Shown piece by piece: positions 28,836-45,298 of a DNA stretch of 64,000 nucleotides (positions within the stretch are counted from its first letter, which is position 1; every line of letters begins with the position of its first letter). The translations under genes and the position numbers were made by a program. This DNA is from Thermoplasmata archaeon. GTDB lineage: Archaea; Thermoplasmatota; Thermoplasmata; RBG-16-68-12. Where the stretch lies: assembly GCA_035636595.1 (NCBI GenBank), contig DASPYU010000009.1, forward strand, positions 31,705 to 95,704, read 5' to 3'. The notes below the pieces were generated by a model. It had not been told where the DNA came from and searched no databases. It saw only the letters and a program-made list of their open reading frames with translations.

Positions 28836-28935
28836 GTCACTCGGAATTCCGCTCAATTGGGCAGAAGGCGTGTCGAGTTCGGGTCGACGCGATCCCTTGG
28901 AACGTACGAGGCGAAACCTTATTCTCGCCACGGAC

Positions 28936-30525
28936 ATGCGTGAGCCTCGAGGGCGTGGGATCGTGGAATTCCGGAACGAACGGACGTGGCAGAACGCGGT
29001 CGAGATGGGGAAGACGGAGGAGTTCCACGCGAAATACGAAGCCGCGGTCGACAAGGTCCGCGCGGGATTCGGGGCCAAGCACCCGATGGTCATCGACGGC
29101 AACGAAGTCTGGGCCATCGCGACGTTCAAGGACCTGAGTCCGGCGGACACGCAGCTCGTCCTCGGGCTCTTCCAGAAAGGCACGCGCACGCACGCGAAGC
29201 AGGCGATCAAGGCGGCGAAGGCCGCGTTCCCGGCGTGGTCCGCGACCCCGTACACGGAGCGCGTGCGGACGTTGCAGCGCGCGGCCGACCTCATCAGCGA
29301 ACGGAAGTTCGAGTACGCGGCAGTCATGTCCTTCGAGAACGGAAAGAACCGCTACGAGGCGATGGCGGACGTCGACGAGGCCGCGGACCTGATCCGCTGG
29401 TACGCTGCGGAGATGCTCCGAAACCAGGGATACGAGCATGCGATGGGGCAGTTCCTCCCCGGCGAGGCGACGAGGAGCGTGCTCAAGCCCTACGGCGTCT
29501 GGGCCGTCATCGCGCCGTTCAATTTCCCGCTCGCAATCGCCGCAGGCATGACCACGGGCGCACTCGTCACGGGAAACGCGGTCGTCTTCAAGCCCGCGAG
29601 CGACACGCCCTTCATGGGCCTGAAGCTCACAGAGGTCCTCCGCGAGGCCGGCGTGCCTCCCGGAGCTTTCAACTACGTGACCGGCCCCGGCAACACGGTC
29701 GGACAGGAACTCGTCGACAACCCGGACATCGACGGCTTCGTGTTCACCGGATCTCGCGCGGTGGGCCTGAAGGCGTTCCGGGCGTTCACGGATACGAGAC
29801 CGAAGCCGATCATCACGGAAATGGGCGGGAAGAATCCGGCGATCGTCACGGCCAGCGCGGATCTCGAGAAGGCCGCGCTCGGAGTCATGCGGGCGGCCTT
29901 CGGGTACGGTGGCCAGAAGTGCTCCGCCTGCTCCCGCGTCCTCGTCGACCGACGGGTGAAGGACGCGTTCCTCGAGCGGCTCGTCGCGGAGACGCAGAAG
30001 ATCAAGATCGGGGACCCGACGGTCCGCGACGTGTACCTCGGGCCCGTCATCAACGATGCCGCGGTCAAGACCTACGAGGCCGCCATCGCCGAGATCAAGC
30101 GGTCGAAGGGCAAGATCCTCGCGGGCGGGAAGGCACTCAAGGGAAGCGGGCGCTTCGTCGAGCCGACGATCGTCGACGACCTGCCGCGGGAGCACCGGAT
30201 TAACAAGGAAGAGTTGTTCGTGCCGATCCTGTCGATCCTCGAGGTGGACGGCCTCGAGGATGCGGTCCACGTGGCGAACGACGTGGAGTACGGCCTGACG
30301 GCGGGCATCTTCACGCGCGAACCGTCGGAGCTGCGGCGCTTCTTTGCCGAAGTCCAGGCGGGCGTCCTCTATGCGAACCGCGCGGCGGGCGCGACGACCG
30401 GGGCGGTCGTCGGCGTGCAACCGTTCGGCGGGTGGAAGATGTCTGGGATCTCGGGCAAAGCAGCCGGCGGGCACCACTACCTGCCGCAATTCCTGCGGGA
30501 GCAGAGCCAGTCGGAGTACGTCTGA
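28936..30525 (+). CDS. rocA: L-glutamate gamma-semialdehyde (1-pyrroline-5-carboxylate) dehydrogenase, ALDH superfamily
   Basis: Internal ATG (MREPRGRGIVEFRNE..), matching the P5CDH N-terminus. ALDH motifs ITEMGGKNP and the catalytic Cys QKCSACS, plus a P5CDH-type C-terminus (QPFGGWKMSG). Confidence 0.8.
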   Translation: MREPRGRGIVEFRNERTWQNAVEMGKTEEFHAKYEAAVDKVRAGFGAKHPMVIDGNEVWAIATFKDLSPADTQLVLGLFQKGTRTHAKQAIKAAKAAFPAWSATPYTERVRTLQRAADLISERKFEYAAVMSFENGKNRYEAMADVDEAADLIRWYAAEMLRNQGYEHAMGQFLPGEATRSVLKPYGVWAVIAPFNFPLAIAAGMTTGALVTGNAVVFKPASDTPFMGLKLTEVLREAGVPPGAFNYVTGPGNTVGQELVDNPDIDGFVFTGSRAVGLKAFRAFTDTRPKPIITEMGGKNPAIVTASADLEKAALGVMRAAFGYGGQKCSACSRVLVDRRVKDAFLERLVAETQKIKIGDPTVRDVYLGPVINDAAVKTYEAAIAEIKRSKGKILAGGKALKGSGRFVEPTIVDDLPREHRINKEELFVPILSILEVDGLEDAVHVANDVEYGLTAGIFTREPSELRRFFAEVQAGVLYANRAAGATTGAVVGVQPFGGWKMSGISGKAAGGHHYLPQFLREQSQSEYV

Positions 30526-30717
30526 TTCCAACCGTCCGAGACCCGATTCACGCCGGCAAATCGCTCCATATCGATTCGCGATTTCCCCCGTGATCGCCCA
30601 AGATTTTCGAGGGCTGTCCTAAGATGTGCGGTGAATCTATTTATAGCGTCCGCCGAATCCCTGTCAGGTTGTAGCACGTGCGGGGGTATTGGGGCCCCTC
30701 GCCATGCTGGTGGGGTT

Positions 30718-33351
30718 ATGCCAGGGGAGGAGAAGCACTCGAGTTGGCGGCGCAGTGAACGAAGAGTCGTTGCGGCGATCGTGACCGCCGTCCTCATCTC
30801 GACGGTCTTGCTTTCGGCGTTCCTCGCCGTCGCGTATCCCGCGGCCGCGTCCGCCGCTCGGGGCGTCAACCCCGCCCAGGCATCTCGCACGCTGCGAATC
30901 GGCGTTTCCGGCCTGACCGCCGTAACGTTGAACCCGAACGCGATCACTCTTGTCCTCGAGTTCATCCCCGTGTACAACGTCTACAGCACGCTCGTCACCC
31001 GCGACGCCTCGCTCAGCATTGTCCCGGACCTCGCGTACCGATGGGAACCTCCCTCCGACGGCGTCACGTGGACGTTCCACCTCGTGTCGAACGCGTACTT
31101 CACGGACCCCATGAATCCCGCGGACCGCAGTCATCCGGTCACCGCGGATGACGTGGTCTTCTCCTATTACCTCGTCAAGAACAACACGGGCAGCATCCTG
31201 AATTCCTACACGTCCCAGATCGACCGGATTGAGAAGGTCGATACGTACACCGTGCGCATCGTCACCAAGGCGCCGTTCGCGGCGATGGACTCGACCCTGA
31301 CCGCCGTCCCGATCTTCCCCATGTATCTGTGGCAATCGATCCGGAACCCCGTCACGCAGGAACCGTTCCCGTACCCGGTCGGGTCCGGTGCGATGTACTA
31401 CGATCCGAACAGCGACCTGTCCGCAGTGATCATCCTGCACCGCAACCCGAACTACTTCGGCGACGCGATGTACTGCCAGCTTTCCCGGCCGGAAGAGGTG
31501 CGGTTCATCCTGTACACCTCCTCGGGCACGATGATCGACGAATTCGGGTCCGGGTCGAACAAGCTCGATGCGATCTTCAACATCCCGGCGTCGAGCTTCC
31601 TGAACGCGCCGGCCCTCCAGCAATCGACCGTGAGCCGAATCCAGGTCTCCGGCGGATTCGTTGGCGAAGTCGCGGCGAACGCGATGACGGACACGCTCCG
31701 CGCCCAGTACCAGCAGTTCCACACGGGACACAACAGCCAGATCCTCGCGACGAACCAGGTCGTCCGGCAGGCGGTCGCGATGAGCATCGACCGGGCCGCG
31801 ATCGTCCGGTATGCCTACCAGGGCCTCGCGACGCTCGGCGACAGCTTGGTGCCGTCGAGCAACCCATGGCACTACCCGATCCCGCCGGCGAATCAGTACG
31901 ATTTCGATCCCGCCGCCGCGCGCGCGATGCTGAACGCCGCGGGATGGGCCTACGATTCCGCGGGCAACCCCGCGACCGCGACGACGACCCCGCTCTACAA
32001 AGCGGGCGGCACACAGGGCCTCGTCTTCCGCTTCTACACGCCGGACAACCACCCGGAGTTCGAGCCCGCGGTGGCGAACATCACCGCGTGGTTGGGCCAG
32101 GCGGGCATCCAGACGACCGACTCGCGGGGCAACTACGTCCCCGGATACGAACTCAAGCCCGTGAACCAGATGAACAGCATCTGGAAAGCGCTCGATTACG
32201 ACATCTGGCTGTGGGACTGGGTCTTCAGCCGGGTCTCGGACCCGTCGCTCGACATCCTCGAGGTGCAGACGACCGACGCGATCGGGCCCACGAGCGACAA
32301 CGGATACTCGAACGCGACGTTCGACGCACTGTACAACGAGTCCTTGGTCACCGTCAACCCGTCCGACCGCCGCAACATCACGAACACGATGCAGCAGATG
32401 CTCTACGACTACGCGTCGTACATCATCCCCTACTACGCGGACGACCTGTACGCGGTCACGAGCGACCCCGGACTCGGCAACGGCTGGCAGAACTGGGGCG
32501 ATTGGACGAAGCGTCCCGGCCTCACCGTGGACAGCTCGCTCCCGGCGCTGTACTTCAACCTGTATCCCGCGGACAACCCGCCACCGGTGATCAGCGCGTT
32601 CCCCGCCGTCGACTTCGTCTCGGGGGCCCCGGCCTCCGTGAGCGTCGTGGCGTCCGATCCGAACGACGTGACGCTGTCGTACACCTGGGACTTCGGGGAC
32701 GGGACCGCTCCGGAGACGACGTCCACCGCCAGCACGACGCACACGTACGCGAGCCCGGGCACGTACGCGCTCAAGGTGCGCGTGACGGACACGGAATGGC
32801 CGACGTGCGCGACCTCTACCGCGACGATCAGTCCCGGCACGGCGAACGGACCTCCGAGTGCGACCTTGGGCTTCCAGTTCCCCGCGTCGGGCCACGGCTG
32901 GGAGCACCAAGCGGTGAACTTCAGCGTGACCGTCTCCGACCCGGAGGGCGACCCGCTCTACATCACCTGGGCGTTCGGGGACCAGGCGACCGCGACGAAC
33001 TACGTCACCTCGACGTCGTCGCCGACGACCGTCACGCAGAGCCACGTGTACGCGTCGCCCGGAAACTACAGCTTCGCCGTCAACGTCACGGACAACCAAA
33101 CGGGCGCCGGGCACATCCAGTCGAAGCCCGCGAACATCCCGATCTGGACGACTCCGACAGGTGGCGGTGGAGGCGGCGGTCCAGGCCCCGGCGTGAATCC
33201 GCTCATCAACTACGGCGTGCCCCTCGGCATCGTGGCCGTCATCCTGATCGCGGCGGCGGTCGTCCTGATCCGTCGGAGCCGGGCGCGAACGAAGGAGGAA
33301 CGGGAGGAGGAACCTCCGAGGCAGCCACCGCCTCCGCCCCCGCCATCCTGA
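30718..33351 (+). CDS. ABC transporter substrate-binding protein (family 5, Opp/Dpp type) fused to two PKD domains and a C-terminal TM anchor
   Basis: Internal ATG (MPGEEK.., signal anchor). SBP_bac_5-like region, PKD motifs (SYTWDFGDG, ITWAFGD), and C-terminal TM (LGIVAVILIAAAVVLI) followed by RRSRARTKEEREEEPPRQPPPPPPPS. Confidence 0.8.
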   Translation: MPGEEKHSSWRRSERRVVAAIVTAVLISTVLLSAFLAVAYPAAASAARGVNPAQASRTLRIGVSGLTAVTLNPNAITLVLEFIPVYNVYSTLVTRDASLSIVPDLAYRWEPPSDGVTWTFHLVSNAYFTDPMNPADRSHPVTADDVVFSYYLVKNNTGSILNSYTSQIDRIEKVDTYTVRIVTKAPFAAMDSTLTAVPIFPMYLWQSIRNPVTQEPFPYPVGSGAMYYDPNSDLSAVIILHRNPNYFGDAMYCQLSRPEEVRFILYTSSGTMIDEFGSGSNKLDAIFNIPASSFLNAPALQQSTVSRIQVSGGFVGEVAANAMTDTLRAQYQQFHTGHNSQILATNQVVRQAVAMSIDRAAIVRYAYQGLATLGDSLVPSSNPWHYPIPPANQYDFDPAAARAMLNAAGWAYDSAGNPATATTTPLYKAGGTQGLVFRFYTPDNHPEFEPAVANITAWLGQAGIQTTDSRGNYVPGYELKPVNQMNSIWKALDYDIWLWDWVFSRVSDPSLDILEVQTTDAIGPTSDNGYSNATFDALYNESLVTVNPSDRRNITNTMQQMLYDYASYIIPYYADDLYAVTSDPGLGNGWQNWGDWTKRPGLTVDSSLPALYFNLYPADNPPPVISAFPAVDFVSGAPASVSVVASDPNDVTLSYTWDFGDGTAPETTSTASTTHTYASPGTYALKVRVTDTEWPTCATSTATISPGTANGPPSATLGFQFPASGHGWEHQAVNFSVTVSDPEGDPLYITWAFGDQATATNYVTSTSSPTTVTQSHVYASPGNYSFAVNVTDNQTGAGHIQSKPANIPIWTTPTGGGGGGGPGPGVNPLINYGVPLGIVAVILIAAAVVLIRRSRARTKEEREEEPPRQPPPPPPPS

Positions 33352-33435: not shown

Positions 33436-34407
33436 GTGAATGCCGCCATCACGATGTTCGGGATCATCTGCCTCAACTACGTCCTCATCCGGCTGATGCC
33501 CGGGAGCGCGGACCTCGCGATCGTGCCCCGTGACCCGAAGTACGCGGGCTTCCGCGAGTACCAGATCGCGCTGTTCGGACTCGACAAGACCCCGCTCGAG
33601 CAGTTCGTCATCTACCTGCAGAAGCTCTTCACCCTCGACTGGGGCGTATCGTACTTCTACAAGCGGCCCGTGGTCCAGATCCTCGCGGTCGACCTGTCGT
33701 GGACCCTCCTGCTCGTGGGCACCGCGACCGTCTTCACGATCTTGATCGGCATGGCGATGGGGGCCTACGCCGCGGTGCGGAGAGGCAAGCCGTTCGACTA
33801 CCTCTCGACGGGATTCGCGATCTTCTTCTACGGGATGCCCATCTTCTGGCTCGGGCTCGTCCTCCAGGCGGCCTTCCGGAAGAACTCGCCCGTCACGGAC
33901 TACTTCTCGTGGTGGCCCTCGCTGCCGGTCCAAGGATACTACGACGACAACTTGGTCCCATGGCGGTGGGACTGGATCCACATCGGCGACGCGACGGTCC
34001 ACCTCATCCTCCCCGCGGCGACGCTCGCCCTCGGGACGCTCGCGGGGATCTCGCTCGTCATGAAGAGCTCCCTCATCGACGTGATGACGGAGGACTTCGT
34101 CACGACGGCGCGGGCGAAAGGGCTGAATGAGCGGGTCATCCTGCGGCGGCACATCTTCCCGAACGGGCTCCCGCCGATGGTCTCCCTCATCGCGCTCGAC
34201 ATCGCGTTCATCCTCGGCGGCGCGTACCAGGTCGAGTACGTCTTCAACTACAAGGGGATCGGCTACCGGACGATCGAGGCGATCGAGAACCTCGACTACC
34301 CGCTGCTTCAATTCATCATCGTGATTGGAGGCGCCGCCGTCGTGCTCGCGAACCTCGTCTCCGATTTTGTCCTGCTCCTGCTCGACCCGCGAATCAAGAT
34401 TACCTGA
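33436..34407 (+). CDS. ABC transporter permease (DppB/OppB type)
   Basis: GTG start. BPD_transp_1 signature region (..LIDVMTEDFVTTARAKGL..) and six TM helices. Confidence 0.85.
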   Translation: MNAAITMFGIICLNYVLIRLMPGSADLAIVPRDPKYAGFREYQIALFGLDKTPLEQFVIYLQKLFTLDWGVSYFYKRPVVQILAVDLSWTLLLVGTATVFTILIGMAMGAYAAVRRGKPFDYLSTGFAIFFYGMPIFWLGLVLQAAFRKNSPVTDYFSWWPSLPVQGYYDDNLVPWRWDWIHIGDATVHLILPAATLALGTLAGISLVMKSSLIDVMTEDFVTTARAKGLNERVILRRHIFPNGLPPMVSLIALDIAFILGGAYQVEYVFNYKGIGYRTIEAIENLDYPLLQFIIVIGGAAVVLANLVSDFVLLLLDPRIKIT

Positions 34408-34415
34408 GGTGATGG

Positions 34416-35333
34416 ATGGCCGAAGTCGTCGAAGGCATCCGGATCGTCTCCCCGTTCCGCGCGCGCGCGACGGTCATGTACCGCCGCCTCCACGACGTCT
34501 GGAGCCAGATCGCGCACAACCGCTCCGCCATGCTGGGACTCGCCATCCTCGTGTTCTTCGTCGTCCTCGCGATCGCGGCCCCTTGGCTCGCGCCCTACGG
34601 GCCGTTGCAGGCGGTCCCCGACGCGCTGCCCCTGACGCGGGCGACGTCGGCGCATCCGCTCGGCGTGAATCAACTCGGATACGACATCTTCTCCCAAGTC
34701 ATCTGGGGCACGCGCGTCTCGCTCATCGTCGGCATCCTCTCCGCGCTCGTCGCGAGCGTCATCGGCACCGCGGTCGGCCTCATCTCGGGCTTCGTCGGCG
34801 GCTGGCTCGACGAGGTCATCATGCGCTTCAACGACGTCGTCCTCTCGATCCCGTGGCTCGTCCTGATGATCGTCATCGCCGCGCGCATCGGGAACCTCGA
34901 CCTGTGGGGCATCATCTTCGTGATCGGCTTCACGGGATGGTCCATCACGGCGCGCGTCATCCGAGGCCAGGTCCTCAGCCTCAAAGAGCGCATGTTCGTC
35001 GAACGCGGCAAGATGATCGGCTCGTCGAACGCGCACATCGTAATCCGGCACATTTTCCCGAACGCCTTCCCGATCGTCTTCGCGAACACGATCCTGACGG
35101 TCGCGGTGTCGATCATCTCGGAGAGCGTCCTCGCGTTCCTCAACCTGTCCGTCCGGAACACGGTGAGCTGGGGCCGGGTCATCGCGGAGGCGTTCAAGTA
35201 CAACGCGATCACGATCGGGATGCCAGGATGGATCATCGTCCCCGGCCTCTGCCTCGTCTTCCTCGTCTTCGGCTTCTACCTCTTCGGGTACGCGCTCGAT
35301 GAGATCCTGAATCCGCGCCTTCGGAGGCGCTAG
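34416..35333 (+). CDS. ABC transporter permease (DppC/OppC type)
   Basis: Typical OppC architecture with EAA-like loop (..ITARVIRGQVLSLKERMFVERGKMIG..). Confidence 0.85.
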   Translation: MAEVVEGIRIVSPFRARATVMYRRLHDVWSQIAHNRSAMLGLAILVFFVVLAIAAPWLAPYGPLQAVPDALPLTRATSAHPLGVNQLGYDIFSQVIWGTRVSLIVGILSALVASVIGTAVGLISGFVGGWLDEVIMRFNDVVLSIPWLVLMIVIAARIGNLDLWGIIFVIGFTGWSITARVIRGQVLSLKERMFVERGKMIGSSNAHIVIRHIFPNAFPIVFANTILTVAVSIISESVLAFLNLSVRNTVSWGRVIAEAFKYNAITIGMPGWIIVPGLCLVFLVFGFYLFGYALDEILNPRLRRR

Positions 35334-35350: not shown

Positions 35351-36334
35351 GTGCGCGACCTCAGCGTCGAATTCGACACGCGCGCCGGGAAAGTGCACGC
35401 GGTCGAGGGCGCCTCGTTCGACGTGGCGGAAGGGGAGGCGCTCGGCCTCGCGGGCGAGTCGGGTTGTGGGAAGACGACGACGGCCCTCTCCCTGATGCGC
35501 CTCCTCCCGGCGAACGGCCACATCGTCGAAGGGACCGTGCGGCTGGACGGCCGCAACCTGGTCCGCTCCTCCGAGGCGGCGTTGCAGAAAATCCGGTGGA
35601 AGAAAATCTCGATCATCTTCCAGGGAGCGATGAATTCCCTGAACCCGGTCCAGCGGATCGGGAAGCAGATCGCCGAACCGATCATCCTGCATGAAGGGGC
35701 GACCAAGGAAGCGGCGACCGCTCGCGCCGGACAGCTCTTGGAGCTCGTCGGGATTTCCCGGGAGCGGCTCAGCGACTATCCCCACGAATTCTCCGGAGGG
35801 ATGCGGCAGCGGGTGATGATCGCGATGGCCCTCGCGTGCAACCCGAACCTCGTGATCGCGGACGAACCCGTGACGGCCCTCGACGTGATGATCCAGGCGC
35901 AGATCCTGGAGCTCCTCGAGCGGCTTCGCCGGGAGTTGGGCCTCTCCATGATCCTCATCTCCCACGATCTCTCCGTCCTTGCGGAGACGTGCGACCGGGT
36001 CGCGATCATGTACGCGGGGAAGATCGTCGAGACGGGCCCGGTCGTCGACGTGTTCTCGGACCCCAAGCATCCGTACACGCAGGGGCTCGTCGCCGCGTTC
36101 CCGGACGTCCGCGGGCCCCGGATCATGCCGGAGGCGATCCCCGGCGATGTGCCGAGTCTCATTTCCCCGCCGTCGGGCTGCGTGTTCCATCCGCGGTGCA
36201 AGTTCTCCTTCGACCGATGCACGACCGCCGAGCCCGCCCTCTCGGAACTGAGCCCCGGACGTCGGGCGGCCTGCTTCCTGTTTCCCGAAGTCACGGAGGT
36301 GCCGGCACGGCCAGCTCGCGCAGCCGAGACATGA
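35351..36334 (+). CDS. ABC transporter ATP-binding protein (DppD/OppD type)
   Basis: Walker A GESGCGKTT, signature FSGGMRQRV, Walker B LVIADEPVTALD, and a C-terminal Opp-type extension with CxxC. Confidence 0.85.
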   Translation: MRDLSVEFDTRAGKVHAVEGASFDVAEGEALGLAGESGCGKTTTALSLMRLLPANGHIVEGTVRLDGRNLVRSSEAALQKIRWKKISIIFQGAMNSLNPVQRIGKQIAEPIILHEGATKEAATARAGQLLELVGISRERLSDYPHEFSGGMRQRVMIAMALACNPNLVIADEPVTALDVMIQAQILELLERLRRELGLSMILISHDLSVLAETCDRVAIMYAGKIVETGPVVDVFSDPKHPYTQGLVAAFPDVRGPRIMPEAIPGDVPSLISPPSGCVFHPRCKFSFDRCTTAEPALSELSPGRRAACFLFPEVTEVPARPARAAET

Positions 36335-38133
36335 TCCGCGTTCGGGACCTCCGGGTCTGGTACCCGCTCCGAAAAGGGCTGTTCGGTGAACTGCTCGGCC
36401 GGCAACCCGAGTGGGTGCGCGCCGTCGACGAAATCTCGTTCGACGTGCGCACGGGCGAGGTCCTGTGCCTCGTCGGCGAGAGCGGATGCGGGAAGACCTC
36501 TACGGGCAAGGCGATCTTGCAACTCGCTGACGCGACGGGCGGGGACGTCTTCATCGAGATCCCCGACGCGGAGTTTGACCGGTTCCGCGCCGCCTCCAAG
36601 AAGAAAGACGAACCGGAATCCGCGAAGCTCGTGGACGAAACCCGCCGCAAGTACTCCGTCTCCTGGAAGGAAAAGTTCCGGTGGACCCGATTCGACATCA
36701 TGAGCCTCGCGACGATGATCGAGGCCGCGGTCCTCCTGGCATTCGTGGTCCCGGCCGCGATCCTCGGACTCTTCTCGGACCCGTTCACGAACTCGTGGAA
36801 CACGCTGGGCTTTGCCGTCGCGGTCGGTGCCATCGTGGGTGCGGTCGCGAGTTTGCCGCCGGCCCGCGCATGGCGTCGCCTCCCCATCGTCGTCGCGGTC
36901 CTGTCGATCGTCCTCGTGGTCCTCGGCGGCATCCCGACGTTCTACTTCCGGGACCTGGTGGCTCCGGGTACCGGCGGGTTCGGATCGACCGCGCTATCGA
37001 TGGCGTGGGAGCGCGATCTGTTCGGGCTCTTGATTGCCACCGCCTTCGCACCGATCGTCGCGGCGGCGATGTCGGCTTTGATCGTCGACGTGAGGCAACG
37101 GACCGGAGGCCTCGGCGGAATGCGCATGCGCGGAATGCGCCGGCGCCTTCAAATGATCTTCCAGGATCCGTACGAGTCCCTCAATCCGAAGCAGTCGGTA
37201 TACGAGATCGTCTCCGAGCCGCTCGTCGTGAACCGGATCACGCGGAATCCCGAGGAAATCACCGAGCTGGTCCAGAGCGCGCTCCGCGACGCCGGACTGC
37301 GTCCCCCGGAGGAGTTCATGTTCCGCTTCCCGCACGAACTCAGCGGCGGACAGCGGCAACGCGTCTCCATCGCAGCGGCCCTCGTCCTGCAACCGGACTT
37401 CATCGTCGCGGACGAGCCGGTGTCGATGCTGGACGTCTCCATCCGGACGGGGATCCTGCAGCTCATGATGGACCTGCGGAAATCCCGCGGCCTCACGTAC
37501 CTGTTCATCACCCACGACCTCTCGCTCGCCTGGGTGATCGCGGACCGCATCGCCGTCATGTACTTGGGCAAAATCGTGGAACTCGGCACCGCGGAACAGG
37601 TGATCGGCCAGCCGAAGCACCCGTACACCCAAGCTCTCATCTCCGTGGTTCCGAGCCCGGATCCGCGCAAGCGGGTCCAGCGGATGATCCTGAAAGGCGA
37701 ACGGCCCGATCCCGTCAACATTCCGACGGGTTGCCGCTTCCATCCAAGGTGCCCAATGGCGTTCGAGCCGTGCGGTTGGAACTCCGAGGAGGTCGTCGCC
37801 GAGCTCACGGCCCTGCAAGCCGACGGCCGATTACCCGGCGTCGCCGCGATCTCCGTCCAGGGCTTGCACAACGTCACGATGACGGTGGCTCCGGGCGCCT
37901 CGGCGGAAAGCACGGTCGCGGCGGTCCGGGCCGCGGTCGCGGCGGGACGCAACGCACGGCTTGGACTGAAAGGCGTCTCGAGGGTTGAGGCGAAGGGCGG
38001 GTCCATCGAGATCTCTTTGAACGCCTGGTTCGTGCCCGAACTCGTCGAGCTCGCGCCGGAGAATTCCGTGGCTTGCCATCTCATCACGCCGCCGTCGACG
38101 GAGGCCGCGGCCGTCACGGCCGGAGCCGACTGA
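36331..38133 (+). CDS. ABC transporter ATP-binding protein (OppF/DppF type) with a ~220-aa four-TM insertion in the nucleotide-binding domain
   Basis: ATG overlaps the previous stop (ATGA). Walker A GESGCGKTST, then an inserted segment with 4 hydrophobic helices (LATMIEAAVLLAFVVPAAILGLF, FAVAVGAIVGAVASL, LPIVVAVLSIVLVVLGGIP, LLIATAFAPIVAAAMSALIV). After it come the Q-loop IFQDPYESLNP, signature LSGGQRQRV, Walker B IVADEPVSMLD and an Opp C-terminal domain. Confidence 0.75.
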   Translation: MIRVRDLRVWYPLRKGLFGELLGRQPEWVRAVDEISFDVRTGEVLCLVGESGCGKTSTGKAILQLADATGGDVFIEIPDAEFDRFRAASKKKDEPESAKLVDETRRKYSVSWKEKFRWTRFDIMSLATMIEAAVLLAFVVPAAILGLFSDPFTNSWNTLGFAVAVGAIVGAVASLPPARAWRRLPIVVAVLSIVLVVLGGIPTFYFRDLVAPGTGGFGSTALSMAWERDLFGLLIATAFAPIVAAAMSALIVDVRQRTGGLGGMRMRGMRRRLQMIFQDPYESLNPKQSVYEIVSEPLVVNRITRNPEEITELVQSALRDAGLRPPEEFMFRFPHELSGGQRQRVSIAAALVLQPDFIVADEPVSMLDVSIRTGILQLMMDLRKSRGLTYLFITHDLSLAWVIADRIAVMYLGKIVELGTAEQVIGQPKHPYTQALISVVPSPDPRKRVQRMILKGERPDPVNIPTGCRFHPRCPMAFEPCGWNSEEVVAELTALQADGRLPGVAAISVQGLHNVTMTVAPGASAESTVAAVRAAVAAGRNARLGLKGVSRVEAKGGSIEISLNAWFVPELVELAPENSVACHLITPPSTEAAAVTAGAD

Positions 38134-39250
38134 GGCGCTCGAACAGCCGATGGAACCGCGAGACGTGCGATCCGGGCACAAGCCGCGATGGGACCGGCGT
38201 CAGAGCGGGCCATGGCGCGACGGTCGTGCGCCATCGAGCGAGGATGTACGCACACGGGACGAACGTGGCGGCCCCGAGCAGGAGGCCGAGGTTCAGGATG
38301 CCCGTCGTCGTGGTGAGGAGCCCCGCGAGCGGCTCGATGATCACGAGACCGAGCGTGTACGCGAACGCGCCCATCGAGAGGACCGTCGCCCGCTGCCCCG
38401 GCTCGAGCCTCCGATTCAGGAACGCGGTCGTGAGCGCGGGCTGCAGGCTCCACACGACGTAAATCGGAATCTGGAAGAGGATCGCTCCCGGATACTGACC
38501 GACGCCGAACATCGCGAAGAACGAAGCCGATGCGAGGAGGACGAGCAACGCGATCGTCCCGAACTCCCCGAGGAAGCGGGAGATCTCGCCCGCGAAGCCG
38601 GACCATAACGCCGCGACCAAGAGGAACGCGGAGATCGAGACCGCGATCTCGGGATCGGAGAGGCCGAGGAACCGCAAGTAGAGGGGACGGAAGATCGACA
38701 TCGCATACAGGGTGATCCCGAGGAACACTCCGATGCCGATGAGCAGCGCGACGCCTTCCCGCCGACGCACGACGCGCAGTCCCTGGACCAACTGTTGCGC
38801 GTACGTGGGCTCCGTGATTCGCTCGACCGACGGTTCGAGGAAGGTCCACGCGACGCCGACCGCCACGAGGTTCCACGCGGCTCCGACGAACAGGGTCACG
38901 CGGAGATCGTGGACGACTTGAACGAGGGCGCCGCCCGCGAACGCACCCGCGGAGTTCGCGAGGAGTTGGATCATCGTGTTGCGGCCGATGTACCGCGGGA
39001 ACTCCGACTCGTGTCCCGCCTCGAGGAGCGTCTCGTACAGGTACGCGGACGTCCCGATCGAGAAAGCGGCACCGAGCGACCAGACCACGTTGGCGCCGAC
39101 GTATCCGACGAACGTCGTCCCAAGGCCGTAGCCGAGGATCCCGGCGGACCGGATCACCTCGCTCACGATAATCGTCTTCTTGCGGCCGACGCGATCCGCC
39201 ATGACGCCAACCGGGAGCTGGAAGACGAGGAGTCCGACCCAGAACGCCAC
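38114..39250 (-). CDS. MFS transporter, N-terminus uncertain
   Basis: 11 TM helices in 378 aa with the MFS motif A region (GVMADRVGRKK). An in-frame TM1-like sequence lies upstream of the GTG start without a canonical start codon. Confidence 0.7.
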   Translation of the reverse strand: MAFWVGLLVFQLPVGVMADRVGRKKTIIVSEVIRSAGILGYGLGTTFVGYVGANVVWSLGAAFSIGTSAYLYETLLEAGHESEFPRYIGRNTMIQLLANSAGAFAGGALVQVVHDLRVTLFVGAAWNLVAVGVAWTFLEPSVERITEPTYAQQLVQGLRVVRRREGVALLIGIGVFLGITLYAMSIFRPLYLRFLGLSDPEIAVSISAFLLVAALWSGFAGEISRFLGEFGTIALLVLLASASFFAMFGVGQYPGAILFQIPIYVVWSLQPALTTAFLNRRLEPGQRATVLSMGAFAYTLGLVIIEPLAGLLTTTTGILNLGLLLGAATFVPCAYILARWRTTVAPWPALTPVPSRLVPGSHVSRFHRLFERLSRLRP

Positions 39251-39549
39251 GTCGACCAGGGTGAAGTCGAAGTCGGACGCGAGGTTGCCGCGAATCCAGA
39301 GTGCCCAGAACGGAATCCAGAGCGCGAAGGCGGACGCCGCTTGGTACGCGTAGAAACGACGGACGCGTCGGCGGAGCTCGGGCAGAATGTATCACCGCGT
39401 CTGAAACGCACGATTCTGAACCTTCTATTTAGACGATGACGCTCGCGCACATCCGCGATGCGTTCCGCGAAACGCTAACAAAATCCGAGGCCCCATCCCA
39501 TGCGAACGGACCCATCCAGGGAATCTATAAGACCCCTTGGGCAATCGTT

Positions 39550-39624: not shown

Positions 39625-40605
39625 ATGCCCCTGCTGACCGTCAAGGGGCTGAAGACGTACTTCGAAACGCAGGAGGGCGACGTGAAGGCCGTGGACGGCG
39701 TCGACTTCACGCTCGGCGAGGGGGAGAGCCTCGGCCTCGCGGGCGAGAGCGGCTGCGGCAAGACGACCGCCGCCTTGTCGATCATGCGGCTCCTCCCTTC
39801 GAACGGCCGGATCGTCGACGGCACGATCGACTACATGGGCTACGACCTCGCGCGCATCCGGGAGAACCAGCTCCGCGGCATCCGATGGAAGCACATCTCG
39901 ATCATCTTCCAGGGCGCGATGAACGCGCTGAACCCGGTGAAGCGGATCGGCGACCAGATCGCGGAGCCGATCATCCTCCACGACAAGGTGGACAAGGAGG
40001 CCGCCATGAAACGCGTCGGGGAGCTCCTCGAACTCGTCGGAATCTCCCGCGAGCGGGGGAGCGAGTACCCGCACGAGTTCTCCGGCGGGATGCGCCAGCG
40101 CGTCATGATCGCGATGGCCCTGGCTTGCAACCCGCGCATCGTGATCGCGGACGAGCCGGTGACCGCACTGGATGTCATGATTCAGGCGCAGATCCTGGAA
40201 CTCCTCGAGCGACTGAAACGCGAACTGGACCTCTCGATGATCCTCATTTCCCACGACCTCTCCGTCATGGCGGAGACGTGCGACTCGATGGCGATCATGT
40301 ACGCGGGGAAGATCGTCGAGACGGGGAGCGTGCGGGACGTGTTCAAGAACGCGAAGCATCCGTACACGAAGGATCTCATCGGCGCGTTCCCGGACATCGA
40401 GGGACCTCAGACGCTGCCGGCGTACATCCCCGGCCTGCTGCCGAGCCTGATCCATCCGCCGCTCGGATGCCGCTTCCATCCGCGATGTAAGTACGCATGG
40501 CAGCTGTGCATCGACCAGGAGCCGCCCCTCGATCCGGTGGGCGAAGGACACCTCGCCGCGTGCCACCTGAATACGACGACGCCGCCCGCGAAGGGAGGCG
40601 CGTGA
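39625..40605 (+). CDS. ABC transporter ATP-binding protein (DppD/OppD type), paralogue of 35351..36334
   Basis: About 70% amino-acid identity to the first DppD-like ATPase, with the same motifs. Confidence 0.85.
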   Translation: MPLLTVKGLKTYFETQEGDVKAVDGVDFTLGEGESLGLAGESGCGKTTAALSIMRLLPSNGRIVDGTIDYMGYDLARIRENQLRGIRWKHISIIFQGAMNALNPVKRIGDQIAEPIILHDKVDKEAAMKRVGELLELVGISRERGSEYPHEFSGGMRQRVMIAMALACNPRIVIADEPVTALDVMIQAQILELLERLKRELDLSMILISHDLSVMAETCDSMAIMYAGKIVETGSVRDVFKNAKHPYTKDLIGAFPDIEGPQTLPAYIPGLLPSLIHPPLGCRFHPRCKYAWQLCIDQEPPLDPVGEGHLAACHLNTTTPPAKGGA

Positions 40606-40606
40606 C

Positions 40607-42349
40607 ATGGCGCGCGAACCGTACCTCGTCCTGCGGAACTTTCGCGTCTGGTTCGAGAAGCGACGCGGCTTCTTCGAGGCCCTCCGCAAGGCCGAGCCCG
40701 AATACGTGCGCGCGGTCGACGGCGTCGATCTCGACGTTGGGCGAGGCGAGGTGTTCTGCCTCGTCGGGGAGAGCGGCTGCGGCAAGACGACGACGGGCAA
40801 GGGGATCCTGAAGCTCGTCGAGCCGACCGGTGGCGACGTGTTCGTCGGCGTGCCGCCGGCCACGCTCTCGCGGTATGAGGCCGCCAACGCGGGCGGAGAC
40901 GAACGCACGCTCGAGGATATCCGCCAGCGGTACTCGCTCTCTTGGAAGGAGCACCGCCCGTGGTCGATCCCGGATCTGCTGATCCTCGCCGTCGTCATCG
41001 TGGGCGCCGCCGTCCTCGCGACGATCCTGCCCGCACTCGTCGCCGCCTCGTTCTTCCACATGCCCTTCACCAACGGCGGGAGCGTCGTCGCGGAGGCGAT
41101 CGTCGCGGGGCTCCTCCTCGCGTTCTTCGGAAGCCTGCCACCGACGCGACCCACGCCGCGCGTCGCGGCGGTCCTCGGGCTGGTCAGTCTCGTCGTCTTC
41201 AACGTCGGGGCGTTCGTCAGCCTCGTGTTCTCGGGCTACCTGGATTCCGGCGCGGTCTACGGGGCGACGTACTGGGGCGTCGGGGCGATCTCGATGCTCG
41301 GCGGGTCGCTGTTCGCGTTCATCACCGCCACCGTGACGGCTCGGATCATCATCCGCATGCGTCTGCACGAAGAGGGACTCGAGGGCGTGAAGATCCGGAG
41401 CCTCCGAAGGAAGCTACAGATCATTTTCCAGGATCCGTACGAATCCCTGAACCCGAAGCACTCCGTGTACGACATCGTCTCGGAGCCGCTCATCGTGAAT
41501 CGGGTCAGCCGCAACCGCGCCGAGACGGAGGCGCGGGTCGAGCAGGCCCTCTACGATGCGGGCCTCCGGCCACCGCGAGACTTCCTGTTCCGGTTCCCGC
41601 ACGAACTCAGCGGCGGACAGCGGCAGCGCGTTTCGATCGCCGGGGCCCTCGTCCTCGATCCGGAATTCCTCGTCGCCGACGAGCCGGTCTCCATGCTCGA
41701 CGTGTCGATCCGCACGGAGATCATCGAGTTGCTGCTCGAGCTCCGCGAGAAGAAGGGACTCACGTACCTGTTCATCACGCACGACCTCTCCCTCGCCTGG
41801 GTCCTCGCCGACCGGATCGGGGTCATGTATCTGGGGAAGATCGTCGAGCAAGGCCCGACGCGCGAGCTGATCAAGAATCCGCGGCATCCGTACACGAAGG
41901 CGCTTGTCTCCGTCGTGCCGGTCCCGGACCCGGACCGCCGGCGCGAGCGGATCATCCTGAAGGGTGAGCGGCCGGATCCCTCGGCCATCCCGGCCGGGTG
42001 CCGGTTCCATCCCCGATGCCCGGTCGCCTTCGAGCGATGCGGGTGGACCGCGGAGGAGGTCGTCGCGGACCTCAAAGGCCTCGTCGCGGGACAGCCGACG
42101 GAGAGCCTGTTCGCCGGCGCGAGACCGGACGGCCCGCTCGCGTTCGTCTTGCCCGGTGCCCCGACCGGCGTCGAGTCGACCCTCCGGGATCTCGTCGCGC
42201 ATCGAGCCGAGGAGATCCGCGCCCTCAAGGCGATCACCACGATCGAGCGGTCGGATGGCGGCGTTCGCGTCTCGTTGCACGACTTCACCGAGCCAGACCT
42301 GAAGTCGATCACGGCGGACACCCAGGTGTCGTGCCACCTATTCGCCTGA
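40607..42349 (+). CDS. ABC transporter ATP-binding protein (OppF/DppF type) with a four-TM insertion, paralogue of 36331..38133
   Basis: Same architecture: Walker A, ~200-aa insertion with 4 TM helices (LLILAVVIVGAAVLATILPALV, VVAEAIVAGLLLAFFGSL, VAAVLGLVSLVVFNVGAFVSLVF, GVGAISMLGGSLFAFITATV), then IFQDPYESLNP, LSGGQRQRV and LVADEPVSMLD. Confidence 0.75.
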   Translation: MAREPYLVLRNFRVWFEKRRGFFEALRKAEPEYVRAVDGVDLDVGRGEVFCLVGESGCGKTTTGKGILKLVEPTGGDVFVGVPPATLSRYEAANAGGDERTLEDIRQRYSLSWKEHRPWSIPDLLILAVVIVGAAVLATILPALVAASFFHMPFTNGGSVVAEAIVAGLLLAFFGSLPPTRPTPRVAAVLGLVSLVVFNVGAFVSLVFSGYLDSGAVYGATYWGVGAISMLGGSLFAFITATVTARIIIRMRLHEEGLEGVKIRSLRRKLQIIFQDPYESLNPKHSVYDIVSEPLIVNRVSRNRAETEARVEQALYDAGLRPPRDFLFRFPHELSGGQRQRVSIAGALVLDPEFLVADEPVSMLDVSIRTEIIELLLELREKKGLTYLFITHDLSLAWVLADRIGVMYLGKIVEQGPTRELIKNPRHPYTKALVSVVPVPDPDRRRERIILKGERPDPSAIPAGCRFHPRCPVAFERCGWTAEEVVADLKGLVAGQPTESLFAGARPDGPLAFVLPGAPTGVESTLRDLVAHRAEEIRALKAITTIERSDGGVRVSLHDFTEPDLKSITADTQVSCHLFA

Positions 42350-42456
42350 GGTCGGATGCGGCCCCGCCCCGGCGAGCTGACGCGGGACCAACCCGCGTGA
42401 GCCGTGTCGCATAAAGGCTTACAAGGCAACCCGTTCTTCCGGGCCTTGGAGAAGCC

Positions 42457-43287
42457 ATGGAGAAGCTCGTCATCACGATCGCGCCGACGGGCTCGGTCCC
42501 GACGAAGAAGGACACGCCGCACGTGCCCGTGACGCCGGACGAGATCGCCGAGACCGCCTATCGATGCGAGCAGGAAGGCGCGTCGATCATCCACGTCCAT
42601 TGTCGCGACGAGGTCGAGCGGCCCACCTCGAAGTTCGAGATCTTCAAGGAGACCGTCGACAAGATCCGCAAGCGCACGAAACTCATCGTGATGACGTCGA
42701 CGAGCGGGATCGCGGCCGCGACCGACGCGGATCGGGCGGCGCCGCTGAAGACGAAACCGGAGATGGGCAGCCTCACGACGGGCTCGCTGAACTTCGCAGG
42801 CCGCAAGCCCTCCGTCGTCTACGTGAACACGATCAAGACGGTGCAGTTCCTCGCGAAGACGATGCTCGACTCGGGCATCAAACCGGAGATCGAGGCGTTC
42901 GACGTCGGCTTCATCCAGCAGGGGAACCGACTCGTCGAGGCGGGGCTCGTCAAGGAGCCCGCGCACTTCCAGCTCGTCATGGGCGTGGACGGCGGCATCC
43001 CCGCGACGCCGGACAACCTCATGCACATGCGGAATCAGCTCCCGCCCACCGCGACGTACGTCGTGGCGGGGATGTCGCGGATGCAGCTGCCCATGACGAC
43101 GATGGCCATCGTGCTCGGCGGCCACGTCCGCGTCGGATTGGAGGACAACCTCTACCTGAAGAAGGGCGTGCTGGCGCGGAACGAAGAGCTGGTCGCCCGG
43201 GCGCGGCACCTCGCCGAAGACCTGCAGCGGGAAGTCGCCAGGCCGGACGAAGCGCGCACAATCATGGGGCTCGCCCCGCGTGCGTGA
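42457..43287 (+). CDS. kce: Beta-keto acid cleavage enzyme (BKACE/DUF849; 3-keto-5-aminohexanoate cleavage enzyme Kce-like)
   Basis: 276 aa: MEKLVITIAPTG.., HVH..RD, and TIM-barrel BKACE similarity over the full length. Confidence 0.8.
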   Translation: MEKLVITIAPTGSVPTKKDTPHVPVTPDEIAETAYRCEQEGASIIHVHCRDEVERPTSKFEIFKETVDKIRKRTKLIVMTSTSGIAAATDADRAAPLKTKPEMGSLTTGSLNFAGRKPSVVYVNTIKTVQFLAKTMLDSGIKPEIEAFDVGFIQQGNRLVEAGLVKEPAHFQLVMGVDGGIPATPDNLMHMRNQLPPTATYVVAGMSRMQLPMTTMAIVLGGHVRVGLEDNLYLKKGVLARNEELVARARHLAEDLQREVARPDEARTIMGLAPRA

Positions 43288-44598
43288 TCACGCCGCGACA
43301 CTCTCTTCGACCGCACGGAGCGTCTGGCGAACGGCGGCGTCGTCGTGAACCGTCGAGAGGTAGAAAGGCTTCTCCGGTTTCACGAAGACGCTCCTCTCGA
43401 GCAACGAGACGTCCAGATTCTTTCTCCGTCGACTGTCCGCGCGCAACATGTCTCGATAGTTACGTAGGGGGCCTTCCATGAAAAGGATCGAGAAGACCGC
43501 GCCGACTTGCGGTACGTTTGCGCGGATGTCTTCCTCTCGGAGGATGCGCTCGATTCCCGACGCCAAGGTCCGGGTTTTCGCGAGCAGATCGTCGAACACG
43601 CCATCTACCTCGAGTTCGTCGAGCGTGGCCATCCCGGCCGCGAGTGCGGGCGGATACCCGGCGAACGTGCTGCTGTGGAAGAACTCGTCCCGGTCGGGGT
43701 CCGCGAGGTCCAAAATGTCCGACCGGCCGAGGAATGCGCCGCACGGGAGTCCGCCGCCGATGATTTTCCCGAGGCACGTCAGGTCCGGCGTAACCCCGTA
43801 CGCCTGTTGCGCGCCGCCGAACGTGAGACGGAAGCCGCTCATCACTTCGTCGAAGATGAGCGGGATGTCGAAGTGAGTCGTGATTTCTCGAAGTCCTTTG
43901 AGGAATTCCGGATCGGGCGCAATGATCGATCGCTCGACGGGCTCGAGGATTACGCAGGCCAGGAGCTCCGCATGTCCGCGGATCCTGGCTTCGGTCTCGG
44001 GCAGATCGTTGAAGGGAAGGACGAGCGTGTTTTTGAGGACCGAGTCGGGCGTGCCGCGCGAACCGGACACGGGGACCAGATGCTCCGACTCCGCGGGCGA
44101 ATGACTGACGAGGAATTCGTCGACGCCTCCGTGGTAGTGGCCCTCGAACTTCGCAATCACCGGACGGCGGCGATACGCCCGTGCGATGCGCACCGCGTGG
44201 ATCGTGGCCTCCGTGCCGGACACCGTGAAGCGCAACTTGCCGTCCGGCCGGAAGATCCGCAAGAGCCGCTCCGCATACGTCGCCTCGAGCTCGTGCGGCG
44301 TCCCGAACATCGTCGTCCCGGCCGAGTCGAGGGCGTCGCGGATCGCCTTCATCACGCGCGGATGGCCGTGGCCCAGGATCAGTGGACCGAAGGACAGGCA
44401 GTAGTCGATGTACTCGTTCCCGTCCAGATCCCAGAGGCGGCAGCCGGAGGCCCTGCGCATCGCGATCGGGTACGGATCGAAGTACTTGACATTCGCCGTC
44501 ACGCCCCCGGGCATCGACTTCCGAGCGCGCTCCGCGTACGACTTCGAAGCCTTCGTGCGATCGACGAGTTTCGCGGGCTTCGTTGTGGCCTTCGCCAT
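43288..44598 (-). CDS. Class III aminotransferase (glutamate-1-semialdehyde 2,1-aminomutase/HemL-like family)
   Basis: Internal ATG (MAKATTKPAKLVDRTKASKSYAERARKSMPGGV..) of track ORF 43288..44709. Class III PLP-fold similarity throughout. Confidence 0.8.
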   Translation of the reverse strand: MAKATTKPAKLVDRTKASKSYAERARKSMPGGVTANVKYFDPYPIAMRRASGCRLWDLDGNEYIDYCLSFGPLILGHGHPRVMKAIRDALDSAGTTMFGTPHELEATYAERLLRIFRPDGKLRFTVSGTEATIHAVRIARAYRRRPVIAKFEGHYHGGVDEFLVSHSPAESEHLVPVSGSRGTPDSVLKNTLVLPFNDLPETEARIRGHAELLACVILEPVERSIIAPDPEFLKGLREITTHFDIPLIFDEVMSGFRLTFGGAQQAYGVTPDLTCLGKIIGGGLPCGAFLGRSDILDLADPDRDEFFHSSTFAGYPPALAAGMATLDELEVDGVFDDLLAKTRTLASGIERILREEDIRANVPQVGAVFSILFMEGPLRNYRDMLRADSRRRKNLDVSLLERSVFVKPEKPFYLSTVHDDAAVRQTLRAVEESVAA

Positions 44599-44707
44599 GG
44601 AGACGAATCGCGATGACCGGACGGCCGATATAGTCTTCGCAGACGGCCATCGAGACCTCTTATACCGCGTCGGCGATGCGCGGTTTGGACGAGGAGGTCG
44701 AATCGAC

Positions 44708-45298
44708 ATGGGAGGTCGTGGAGACTTCGAAAAATCCTACGCAACCGGGGACACGCCGTGGGACTCCGGGGTCCCGAGCGCGGAACTGATGCGCGTGCTC
44801 GACGCCGGCTTGTTGCCCGGAAAGACCGCGCTCGAGATCGGATGCGGCACCGGGACGAATGCCATCGCGCTCGCACGTCGAGGATATCGGGTGACCGCGG
44901 TCGATCTCGTCGACCTCGCGGTCCGGCGGGCGCGGGAGAAGGCGAAGAAGGCGGGCGTCGAGATCGACTTTCGCGTGGGAGACGCAACTCGAATGGATCT
45001 CGGCGGACCGTACGATGTCGTGTTCGACCGGGGCGTCTATCACGGCGTTCGCGTCCGGGCTCTCCCCGCGTTCCTGAAATTGCTCCAGCGGGTGACGCAC
45101 AAGGGCTCCCGCTGGCTGTGCCTCGCAGGGAACGCGAAGGAACCCACGGAAGAGGGCCCGCCCGTCGTGAGCGAACAGGAGTTCAGATCCGAGCTCGGAC
45201 CGTTGTTCAACTTCCTCGAGGTGCGCGAGTTCCGGTTCACACTCAACCGCGAGGGCTTCCGGCCCCTCGGCTGGTCCATCCTCATGGAACGCCGCTAG
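44708..45298 (+). CDS. Small class I SAM-dependent methyltransferase (TPMT/TehB-like), paralogue of 11522..12127
   Basis: Internal ATG of track ORF 44408..45298. Motif I ALEIGCGTGTNAIALARRG. Confidence 0.6.
   Translation: MGGRGDFEKSYATGDTPWDSGVPSAELMRVLDAGLLPGKTALEIGCGTGTNAIALARRGYRVTAVDLVDLAVRRAREKAKKAGVEIDFRVGDATRMDLGGPYDVVFDRGVYHGVRVRALPAFLKLLQRVTHKGSRWLCLAGNAKEPTEEGPPVVSEQEFRSELGPLFNFLEVREFRFTLNREGFRPLGWSILMERR

Follow-up and report, generated by a model that had tools for sequence, protein, structure and literature searches.

In this work we have examined a 64,000-nucleotide stretch of the genome of a Thermoplasmata archaeon (contig DASPYU010000009.1; "the window" below means this whole stretch) and have concentrated on one of its genes, p1, which encodes an ATPase of the OppF/DppF type belonging to an ATP-binding cassette (ABC) transporter. 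The transporter is an ordinary importer of peptides, one ATPase subunit of which contains a conserved insertion of four predicted transmembrane (TM) helices that is structurally without precedent; judging from its genes, it would carry out the ATP-dependent uptake of peptides. We regard it as highly probable that the insertion found in p1 and in its paralogue p2, encoded in the same window, is a real and selected four-TM block lying within the nucleotide-binding domain (NBD), and hydropathy, charge distribution and structure modelling all predict that it spans the membrane. The original prediction had suggested that it might tether or gate the importer or pack against the permeases; among such roles, the pattern of sequence conservation favours a tether or brace, and to a mechanism of this kind we give a probability of about 0.45.

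The insertion in p1 and its predicted membrane helices

Sequence, fold and operon all place p1 among the Opp/Dpp ATPases. The protein does not qualify as an equivalog of E. coli DppF or OppF. Pfam recognizes ABC_tran (1.4e-23), as two separate stretches, and oligo_HPY (PF08352; 3.3e-21). The best matches of the protein are DppF and OppF of E. coli (8z1v, 8z21) and OppD of Mycobacterium tuberculosis (8j5q), with a Foldseek E-value of 8e-22, a TM-score (template modelling score) of 0.82 on the target and a phmmer E-value of 1e-97, and with these proteins p1 shares the NBD fold, the motifs, the oligo_HPY domain and the four-cysteine [4Fe-4S] motif. The best NCBIfam models are also those of DppF and OppF, to which p1 aligns in two stretches and below the cut-offs: 276.6 bits against 660 for NF043071 (DppF equivalog), 305.8 against 408 for NF008453 (DppF subfamily) and 275.0 against 540 for NF011659 (OppF equivalog). 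All the expected motifs could be located, namely Walker A (GESGCGKT, residue 49), the Q-loop (IFQDP, 276), LSGGQ (337), Walker B (FIVADEP, 357), the D-loop (SMLD, 365), the H-loop (ITHDL, 393) and C-x5-C-x6-C (468). The start codon of p1 overlaps the stop codon of the upstream OppD1 gene (ATGA at 36331-36334), which is the pattern expected of a translationally coupled operon gene. The operon, of which p1 is the last gene, runs SBP-OppB-OppC-OppD-OppF: a substrate-binding protein (SBP) with an SBP_bac_5 domain, two BPD_transp_1 permeases, one of them with OppC_N, and a second ATPase follow the same logic of one SBP, two permeases and two ATPases as the Opp and Dpp operons of E. coli. The original prediction, made from this DNA alone, had named an OppF-type ATPase in which the Q-loop, LSGGQ, Walker B, the H-loop and the Opp C-terminal domain are intact downstream of the insertion, and our results agree on both points.

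Where p1 departs from its family is in the distance between Walker A and the Q-loop. In the known DppF, OppF and OppD proteins, which are peripheral and soluble, 45-50 residues or thereabouts separate the two motifs, and OppD1 of the same operon has about 50, whereas Lys55 of Walker A and Gln278 of the Q-loop are 223 residues apart in p1. Residues 75-259 of p1 stand opposite just seven residues of M. tuberculosis OppD (8j5q_D 420-426), so that the net insertion amounts to about 180 amino acids (aa). The size of about 220 residues that had been proposed for it has to be corrected, since this is the total spacing between the motifs. The insertion enters the loop that connects the beta-strand following the Walker A helix to the strand running into the Q-loop, and it consists of a soluble helical hairpin, a juxtamembrane motif, the four predicted TM helices and an Arg-rich return linker. 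With four such helices p1 does not fit the description of its family as peripheral subunits which do not span the membrane.

In a Kyte-Doolittle profile (19-residue window) the four segments peak at 1.9-2.7 in p1 and at 1.77-2.83 in p2. AlphaFold2, supplied with an alignment of 76 sequences, modelled full-length p1 with a mean predicted local distance difference test score (pLDDT) of 83 and a predicted TM-score (pTM) of 0.70; the means of ten-residue blocks were 92-98 over most of the insertion, the TM block included, and the insertion modelled by itself reached a mean pLDDT of 87.6 and a pTM of 0.78. The helices of the modelled insertion cover residues 79-90, 95-108, 120-148, 155-173, 184-210, 219-228 (a short one) and 230-258. 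Among 116 homologues the TM helices, 19-29 residues long, are almost free of insertions and deletions, and the three predicted cytoplasmic loops contain on average 12.3 Lys and Arg residues against 0.6 in the two predicted outer loops, a positive-inside bias present in every one of the 116. Since the TM block is connected to the NBD at both ends, these ends must lie in the cytoplasm, and the even number of helices together with the charge bias agrees with this. The four membrane helices of the original prediction are thus supported, as predicted helices, by three kinds of evidence.

Could the insert instead be a domain of hydrophobic helices hidden inside a soluble assembly, or might it be an artefact of annotation or assembly in a GC-rich genome? 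The DNA has 65% GC, and such DNA gives translations rich in Ala, Gly, Val and Leu in many frames. Furthermore, one metagenome-assembled genome (MAG), represented in the P0008 cluster, shows the gene as two fragments, TLZ95917.1 (218 aa) and TLZ95929.1 (a 326-aa partial), on one 26.7-kb contig. This split could be a frameshift or an assembly error in that MAG, and the case illustrates that annotation is able to mask the insert-bearing OppF architecture. However, in p1 the insert lies in the same frame as both halves of the NBD, it is kept in more than 100 homologues from independent samples, its hydropathy and charge pattern is retained even in members of low identity, the confidence of the AlphaFold2 model is high and the substitutions are mostly synonymous. 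We consider a buried domain or an artefact extremely improbable and already largely refuted.

Age, selection and distribution of the insertion

The long spacing between Walker A and the Q-loop, 213-283 residues and in frame, is found in all but three of about 120 best homologues, the three exceptions being entries of odd length or truncated ones. The paralogue p2 carries the full set of motifs (Walker A, Q-loop, LSGGQ, Walker B, D-loop and H-loop) and is 49.6% identical to p1 overall and 29% identical within the insertion. The architecture that the original prediction had described for this second copy is therefore there, but the 50-60% identity that it had given for the two insertions is not; the lower value strengthens the argument for an old feature. 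Both paralogue types have orthologues in other MAGs, where the p1 type and the p2 type form sister clades, and the insert must consequently be older than the duplication that produced them, which bears out the claim of an old and conserved feature. A frameshift fusion of two genes, which had been named among the findings that would overturn the prediction, can be excluded, since the insert has the two halves of a single domain on either side of it and is read in one frame with them throughout those more than 100 homologues. The TM block was also compared with that of L087 (GCA_009772795.1, 98.4% identical), which differs by eight synonymous and one non-synonymous substitution, a ratio of non-synonymous to synonymous rates (dN/dS) of about 0.045; the counts are small, but their direction is clear. 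The in-frame spacing and this substitution pattern both confirm that the insertion is not an assembly artefact. Two further loci, L085 and L086, are 100% identical to the window.

The original prediction had advised mapping the spread of the insertion with profile searches, and this spread proved to be narrow: a profile of the insertion alone found 17 clusters at E<=1e-3, 15 of them at E<=1e-10, among 1.84 billion cluster representatives. The 17 matches comprise complete proteins with the architecture of p1 (P0104, P0129, P0133, P0135), fragments thereof and one spurious repeat protein, and no free-standing four-TM relative of the insertion was found among these representatives. Pfam gave only noise-level matches to assorted membrane families and no family for the insertion, nor was a specific PDB fold found for it. 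Judged from the source names of the database entries, which are MAGs called Thermoplasmata, Methanobacteriota or Euryarchaeota archaeon, the architecture appears to be confined to a clade of uncultured soil Thermoplasmata. The homologues bear generic annotations, either "oligopeptide/dipeptide ABC transporter ATP-binding protein" or "ABC transporter ATP-binding protein", and because they are annotated as ordinary Opp/Dpp ATPases the feature is invisible in databases. HYS99504.1 belongs to the 90% cluster of p1. In a scan of GTDB with the full-length alignment, generic matches to FQDPYESL and VGESGCGKT predominated among the matches listed, and most of the "long" proteins were adjacent oppD and oppF joined together; among these matches L001 and L027 were the informative ones.

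The closest relatives by NBD that lack the helices are OppF proteins of 427-460 aa from Thermoplasmata, Aciduliprofundum and Bathyarchaeia (e.g. L027 4917..6203, P0191-P0275); L027, the TM-free Thermoplasmata locus that we checked, has a GC content of 39%. These proteins have a shorter soluble hairpin at the same site, ending in "LRKYSLYHMSKKK" (the "LRKYSL" motif), and the same alpha/beta domain between the third and fourth cysteines, but they are without the four-TM block of about 145 residues, in place of which the protein L027 4917..6203 has a short linker, "HMSKKK". Since they share the flanking hairpin, the block (p1 117-262) can be placed between "RKYSxxWKE" and "RxRxxRRxLQ", the latter running into the Q-loop strand of p1. 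In a crude neighbour-joining tree of the NBD core the main TM-bearing clade was monophyletic. The divergent TM-bearing proteins P0129 and P0135 fell beside or below the TM-free clade; the TM block may have been gained by the TM-bearing clade or lost later by the TM-free one.

Conservation within the insertion is concentrated in three cytoplasmic elements and not in the helices or outer loops. The frequency of the top residue is 0.73 in the juxtamembrane motif (residues 104-119), 0.76 in the TM2-TM3 loop (174-183) and 0.69 in the return linker (255-272), where R255, G263 and R270 are invariant. For the TM helices the values are 0.45-0.49, and for the outer loops 0.42-0.43. A conserved helical face, or a helical periodicity of conservation, was sought in each TM helix and none was found. 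Outside the insertion, Cys 468, 474, 481 and 582 are invariant in the 76 sequences. In a subgroup of homologues (P0003, P0005-P0008) the spacing from Walker A to the Q-loop is 282-283 residues instead of about 222, and an extra Arg-rich stretch of about 60 aa, probably amphipathic and helical, follows TM4 (…SESIQRVLRRLQRFSQRASAALLDRR…).

Mean identity to p1 is 84% in the NBD core but drops to 32% in the TM block, and it might be argued from this difference that the block is a largely neutral passenger, a hydrophobic segment which was acquired once and has been retained since its removal would disrupt folding, with its association with the membrane being incidental. The existence of TM-free relatives and the narrow distribution would fit such an origin. 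Nevertheless, helix lengths without insertions or deletions, a charge bias in all 116 homologues, invariant juxtamembrane residues, the retention of the block in both anciently diverged paralogue types and the eight-to-one excess of synonymous changes all speak against a passenger, and we think it rather improbable.

Possible roles of the helix bundle

How might such a bundle serve a peptide importer? The SBP-OppB-OppC-OppD-OppF operon surrounds every TM-bearing homologue that we fetched, and both permeases have six hydrophobic segments whether or not the system carries the insert. The permeases thus keep their normal six TM segments each, which means that the insert is additional and replaces nothing; for the same reason we rejected the idea that it substitutes for missing permease helices. 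In the mechanism that we favour, the four helices would form a compact bundle, making OppF itself an integral membrane protein, and the bundle would tie the outer edge of the OppF NBD to the bilayer beside its permease partner OppC. That OppC is the expected partner follows by analogy with E. coli, where DppF pairs with DppC (PMC12136057). The TM helices and outer loops would be constrained merely to remain hydrophobic, and the RRKYSxxWKE..PW and SLPPxRPxRR elements, together with the R-rich linker that precedes the Q-loop by about 20 residues, would probably dock on the NBD and/or the cytoplasmic face of the permease. The insert would then act as a built-in anchor or brace which stabilizes the assembly of the asymmetric OppBCDF translocator, outside the substrate path and with no contact site for the SBP. 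Some 20 residues lie between the end of TM4 and the Q-loop glutamine, and in type I importers the coupling helix of the permease fits into a groove which the Q-loop lines; taken together, these positions make the geometry of an anchor feasible. In both E. coli and M. tuberculosis the complex needs the [4Fe-4S] domain for its stability, and DppBCDF of E. coli comes apart on oxidation (PMC12136057). This reliance on an oxidation-labile domain shows that retention of the ATPase is a real vulnerability in the Opp/Dpp family, and we may speculate that a covalent membrane tether offsets the fragility of the Fe-S domain.

Several points weigh against an anchor or brace. The membrane insertion is predicted, and the contact with OppC is one that we infer. 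The invariant residues of the cytoplasmic loops and the attachment by the Q-loop strand fit a regulatory role equally well. The TM-free relatives, of 427-460 aa, work without the block, and anchoring is therefore not generally needed in the family. Lastly, the dN/dS estimate rests on nine substitutions.

The main rival is in fact a regulatory one, in which the TM bundle would be a transducer that senses some condition in or across the membrane, for instance the docked or anchored SBP, the lipid state or the membrane potential, and gates ATP hydrolysis via the short linker into the Q-loop strand. The attachment about 20 residues upstream of the Q-loop would suit this role, as would the invariant R255, G263 and R270 of the return linker and P177 of the cytoplasmic loop, and the presence of the insert in only one of the two ATPases provides a built-in asymmetry. 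A signal across the membrane is moreover a known requirement, given that the E. coli translocator is inactive until DppA and ATP bind (PMC12136057). However, conservation is at its lowest in the outer loops and TM helices (0.42-0.49), which, besides W226, offer no conserved external surface with which to read an SBP. Nor is the mode of SBP anchoring correlated with the insert: the L084 system has the insert and an SBP without a C-terminal anchor. We regard a regulatory transducer as unlikely.

Is it possible that the bundle is a docking site which holds a TM-anchored SBP, or an extra element of the translocation pathway which lines the substrate path? Archaeal SBPs are membrane-tethered, and the SBP of the window has a C-terminal TM anchor (aa 862-880). 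The L084 system argues against docking, and because of it we rejected a correlation between the insert and an SBP anchor of this type. No TM helix has a conserved face, and the permeases already supply a full 6+6 TM core. The insert is attached to the loop that follows the Walker A helix and precedes the Q-loop strand, a place which, from what is generally known of the NBD fold, should be remote from the central pathway. Both docking and pathway roles seem to us very improbable, and an anchor or brace is still the reading that we prefer.

Genomic context, related architectures and meaning

The features discussed here are collected in Table 1.

Table 1. Coordinates in the window of the importer genes, of the parts of p1 and of the neighbouring genes
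Feature	Position	Strand	Details
Neighbouring gene	28870..30525
SBP	30631..33351	+	SBP_bac_5 and two PKD domains; N-terminal TM/signal segment, C-terminal TM anchor
OppB-like permease	33436..34407	+	six hydrophobic segments
OppC-like permease	34416..35333	+	OppC_N and BPD_transp_1; six hydrophobic segments
OppD1	35351..36334	+	canonical partner ATPase, 327 aa, no insertion; Fe-S Cys 277/283/290/308
p1	36331..38133	+	OppF/DppF-type ABC ATPase, 600 aa; NBD with four-TM insertion and second, C-terminal inserted domain
p1 NBD, N-terminal part	36331..36555	+	aa 1-75; beta strands and Walker A GESGCGKT (aa 49-56)
p1 soluble helical hairpin of insertion	36556..36639	+	aa 76-103; AlphaFold2 helices 79-90, 95-108
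p1 juxtamembrane motif RRKYSxxWKE..PW	36640..36687	+	aa 104-119, predicted cytoplasmic; R105, S109, W112 invariant
p1 predicted TM helix 1	36688..36774	+	aa 120-148
p1 predicted TM helix 2	36793..36849	+	aa 155-173, Gly-rich
p1 basic loop SLPPxRPxRR	36850..36879	+	aa 174-183, predicted cytoplasmic; P177 invariant; P176, R179, R183 at least 90%
p1 predicted TM helix 3	36880..36960	+	aa 184-210
p1 outer loop with short helix	36961..37017	+	aa 211-229; variable save W226
p1 predicted TM helix 4	37018..37104	+	aa 230-258; ends at invariant R255
p1 return linker and remaining NBD	37105..37575	+	Arg-rich linker aa 259-272; Q278, LSGGQ 337, Walker B 357, D-loop 365, H-loop 393
p1 oligo_HPY domain	37576..37782	+	Cys468, Cys474, Cys481, putative first three [4Fe-4S] ligands by homology to E. 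coli DppF
p1 alpha/beta domain	37783..38076	+	about 95 aa between Cys3 and invariant Cys582 (presumed fourth cluster ligand)
MFS gene	38114..39250	-
OppD2	39625..40605	+	canonical partner of p2, 326 aa, 68% identical to OppD1
p2	40607..42349	+	paralogue of p1, 580 aa, same architecture; Walker A 54, Q-loop 273, Cys465/471/478/576
p2 predicted four-TM block	40955..41362	+	approximately aa 117-252
BKACE gene	42457..43287
Class-III aminotransferase gene	43288..44709	-
Neighbouring gene	46015..47379	-
Neighbouring gene	47597..49234

The SBP is unusually long, 877-906 aa, and has a Gly/Pro-rich stalk ahead of its TM anchor and a basic, then Pro-rich, tail after it. Its true start is probably 30718, the listed GTG lying 29 codons upstream and the relatives having 877 aa. 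The surroundings of p2 are reduced. In this genome only OppD2 is adjacent to it, while the relatives L081 and L001 hold a full operon, whose SBP2-OppB2-OppC2 part of about 5.1 kb is here replaced by about 160 bp (39380-39540); relative to the same two loci, the peptidase S58 gene downstream of p2 is also missing (42350..42456 region). The same orphan layout occurs in GCA_009772795.1, in which OppD2 and p2 are intact and identical. OppD2 and p2 may serve the permeases of the first operon, or they may be a recent remnant. The neighbouring genes encode an aldehyde dehydrogenase, BKACE, two class-III aminotransferases and an amidohydrolase, to which the relatives add peptidase S58, and BKACE is named 3-keto-5-aminohexanoate cleavage enzyme in related MAGs. 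This gene neighbourhood suggests the catabolism of peptides or beta-amino acids.

Both paralogues contain a second inserted domain, at aa 485-582 in p1 and aa 482-576 in p2 (42050..42334), which AlphaFold2 models with a pLDDT of about 90 and for which no Pfam or PDB sequence match was found. It lies in the oligo_HPY region, whose four cysteines are putative ligands of a [4Fe-4S] cluster, and it separates the fourth cysteine from the third by 101 residues in p1 (C481-C582) and 98 in p2 (C478-C576), in contrast to 17 in E. coli DppF and 18 in OppD1. In divergent systems the partner OppD has a large soluble insertion in its helical subdomain (L083 6221..8017, 598 aa; L084 6107..7468; L027 3543..4907), and that of L083 holds a copy of the C-terminal inserted domain of OppF (…SRNPAASDLPPLAKVSLQGGAVRLTF…).

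Large insertions in the same part of the fold occur elsewhere. The profile of the Mycoplasma-type long OppF, which with its OppD is covered by NF043078/NF043079, has several hundred extra residues ahead of the Q-loop; p1, however, scores 251.1 bits on NF043078, the cut-off of which is 800. NBD1 of CFTR carries a regulatory insertion, which is soluble. As these examples show, large insertions can be accommodated in the N-terminal part of the NBD, and to our knowledge neither of them has been described as spanning the membrane. We also considered a fused half-transporter, with membrane domain and NBD in one chain, and rejected it, as p1 has its TM block within the NBD and this block bears no signature of an ABC membrane domain. 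For an anchor or brace, or for a modulator, the functional parallel that comes nearest is the TM helix of LptC in LptB2FGC, an accessory helix which reportedly packs on the ABC membrane domains and can modulate ATPase coupling. The likeness lies in the extra TM helices beyond the core membrane domains. Accessory helices of this kind, however, reside in a separate protein or in the permease and are not known within the ATPase domain, and no homology to them was found. In the full-text literature of a limited library we came upon no ABC ATPase described as having TM helices within its NBD, and the database names are generic only, in keeping with the original statement that the architecture had not been described.

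ABC transporters are taught as two membrane domains and two soluble, peripheral ATPase domains, which communicate only via the coupling helices. A conserved membrane bundle spliced in ahead of the Q-loop strand breaks the rule of the peripheral ATPase in a defined way. It also provides a natural experiment on how much mobility of the NBD is needed for the transport cycle, on the cohesion of the complex in a family which otherwise relies on a fragile [4Fe-4S] domain, and on how a soluble fold gains new membrane segments. Perhaps the bundle moves with the NBD in the ATP cycle and forms a third, mechanically coupled membrane element, which gates or regulates transport or reports the state of the membrane or the SBP to the Q-loop. 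We hold this to be possible but doubtful. If it were true, the importer would be the first ABC transporter in which a part of the motor domain's own fold connects that domain to the bilayer.

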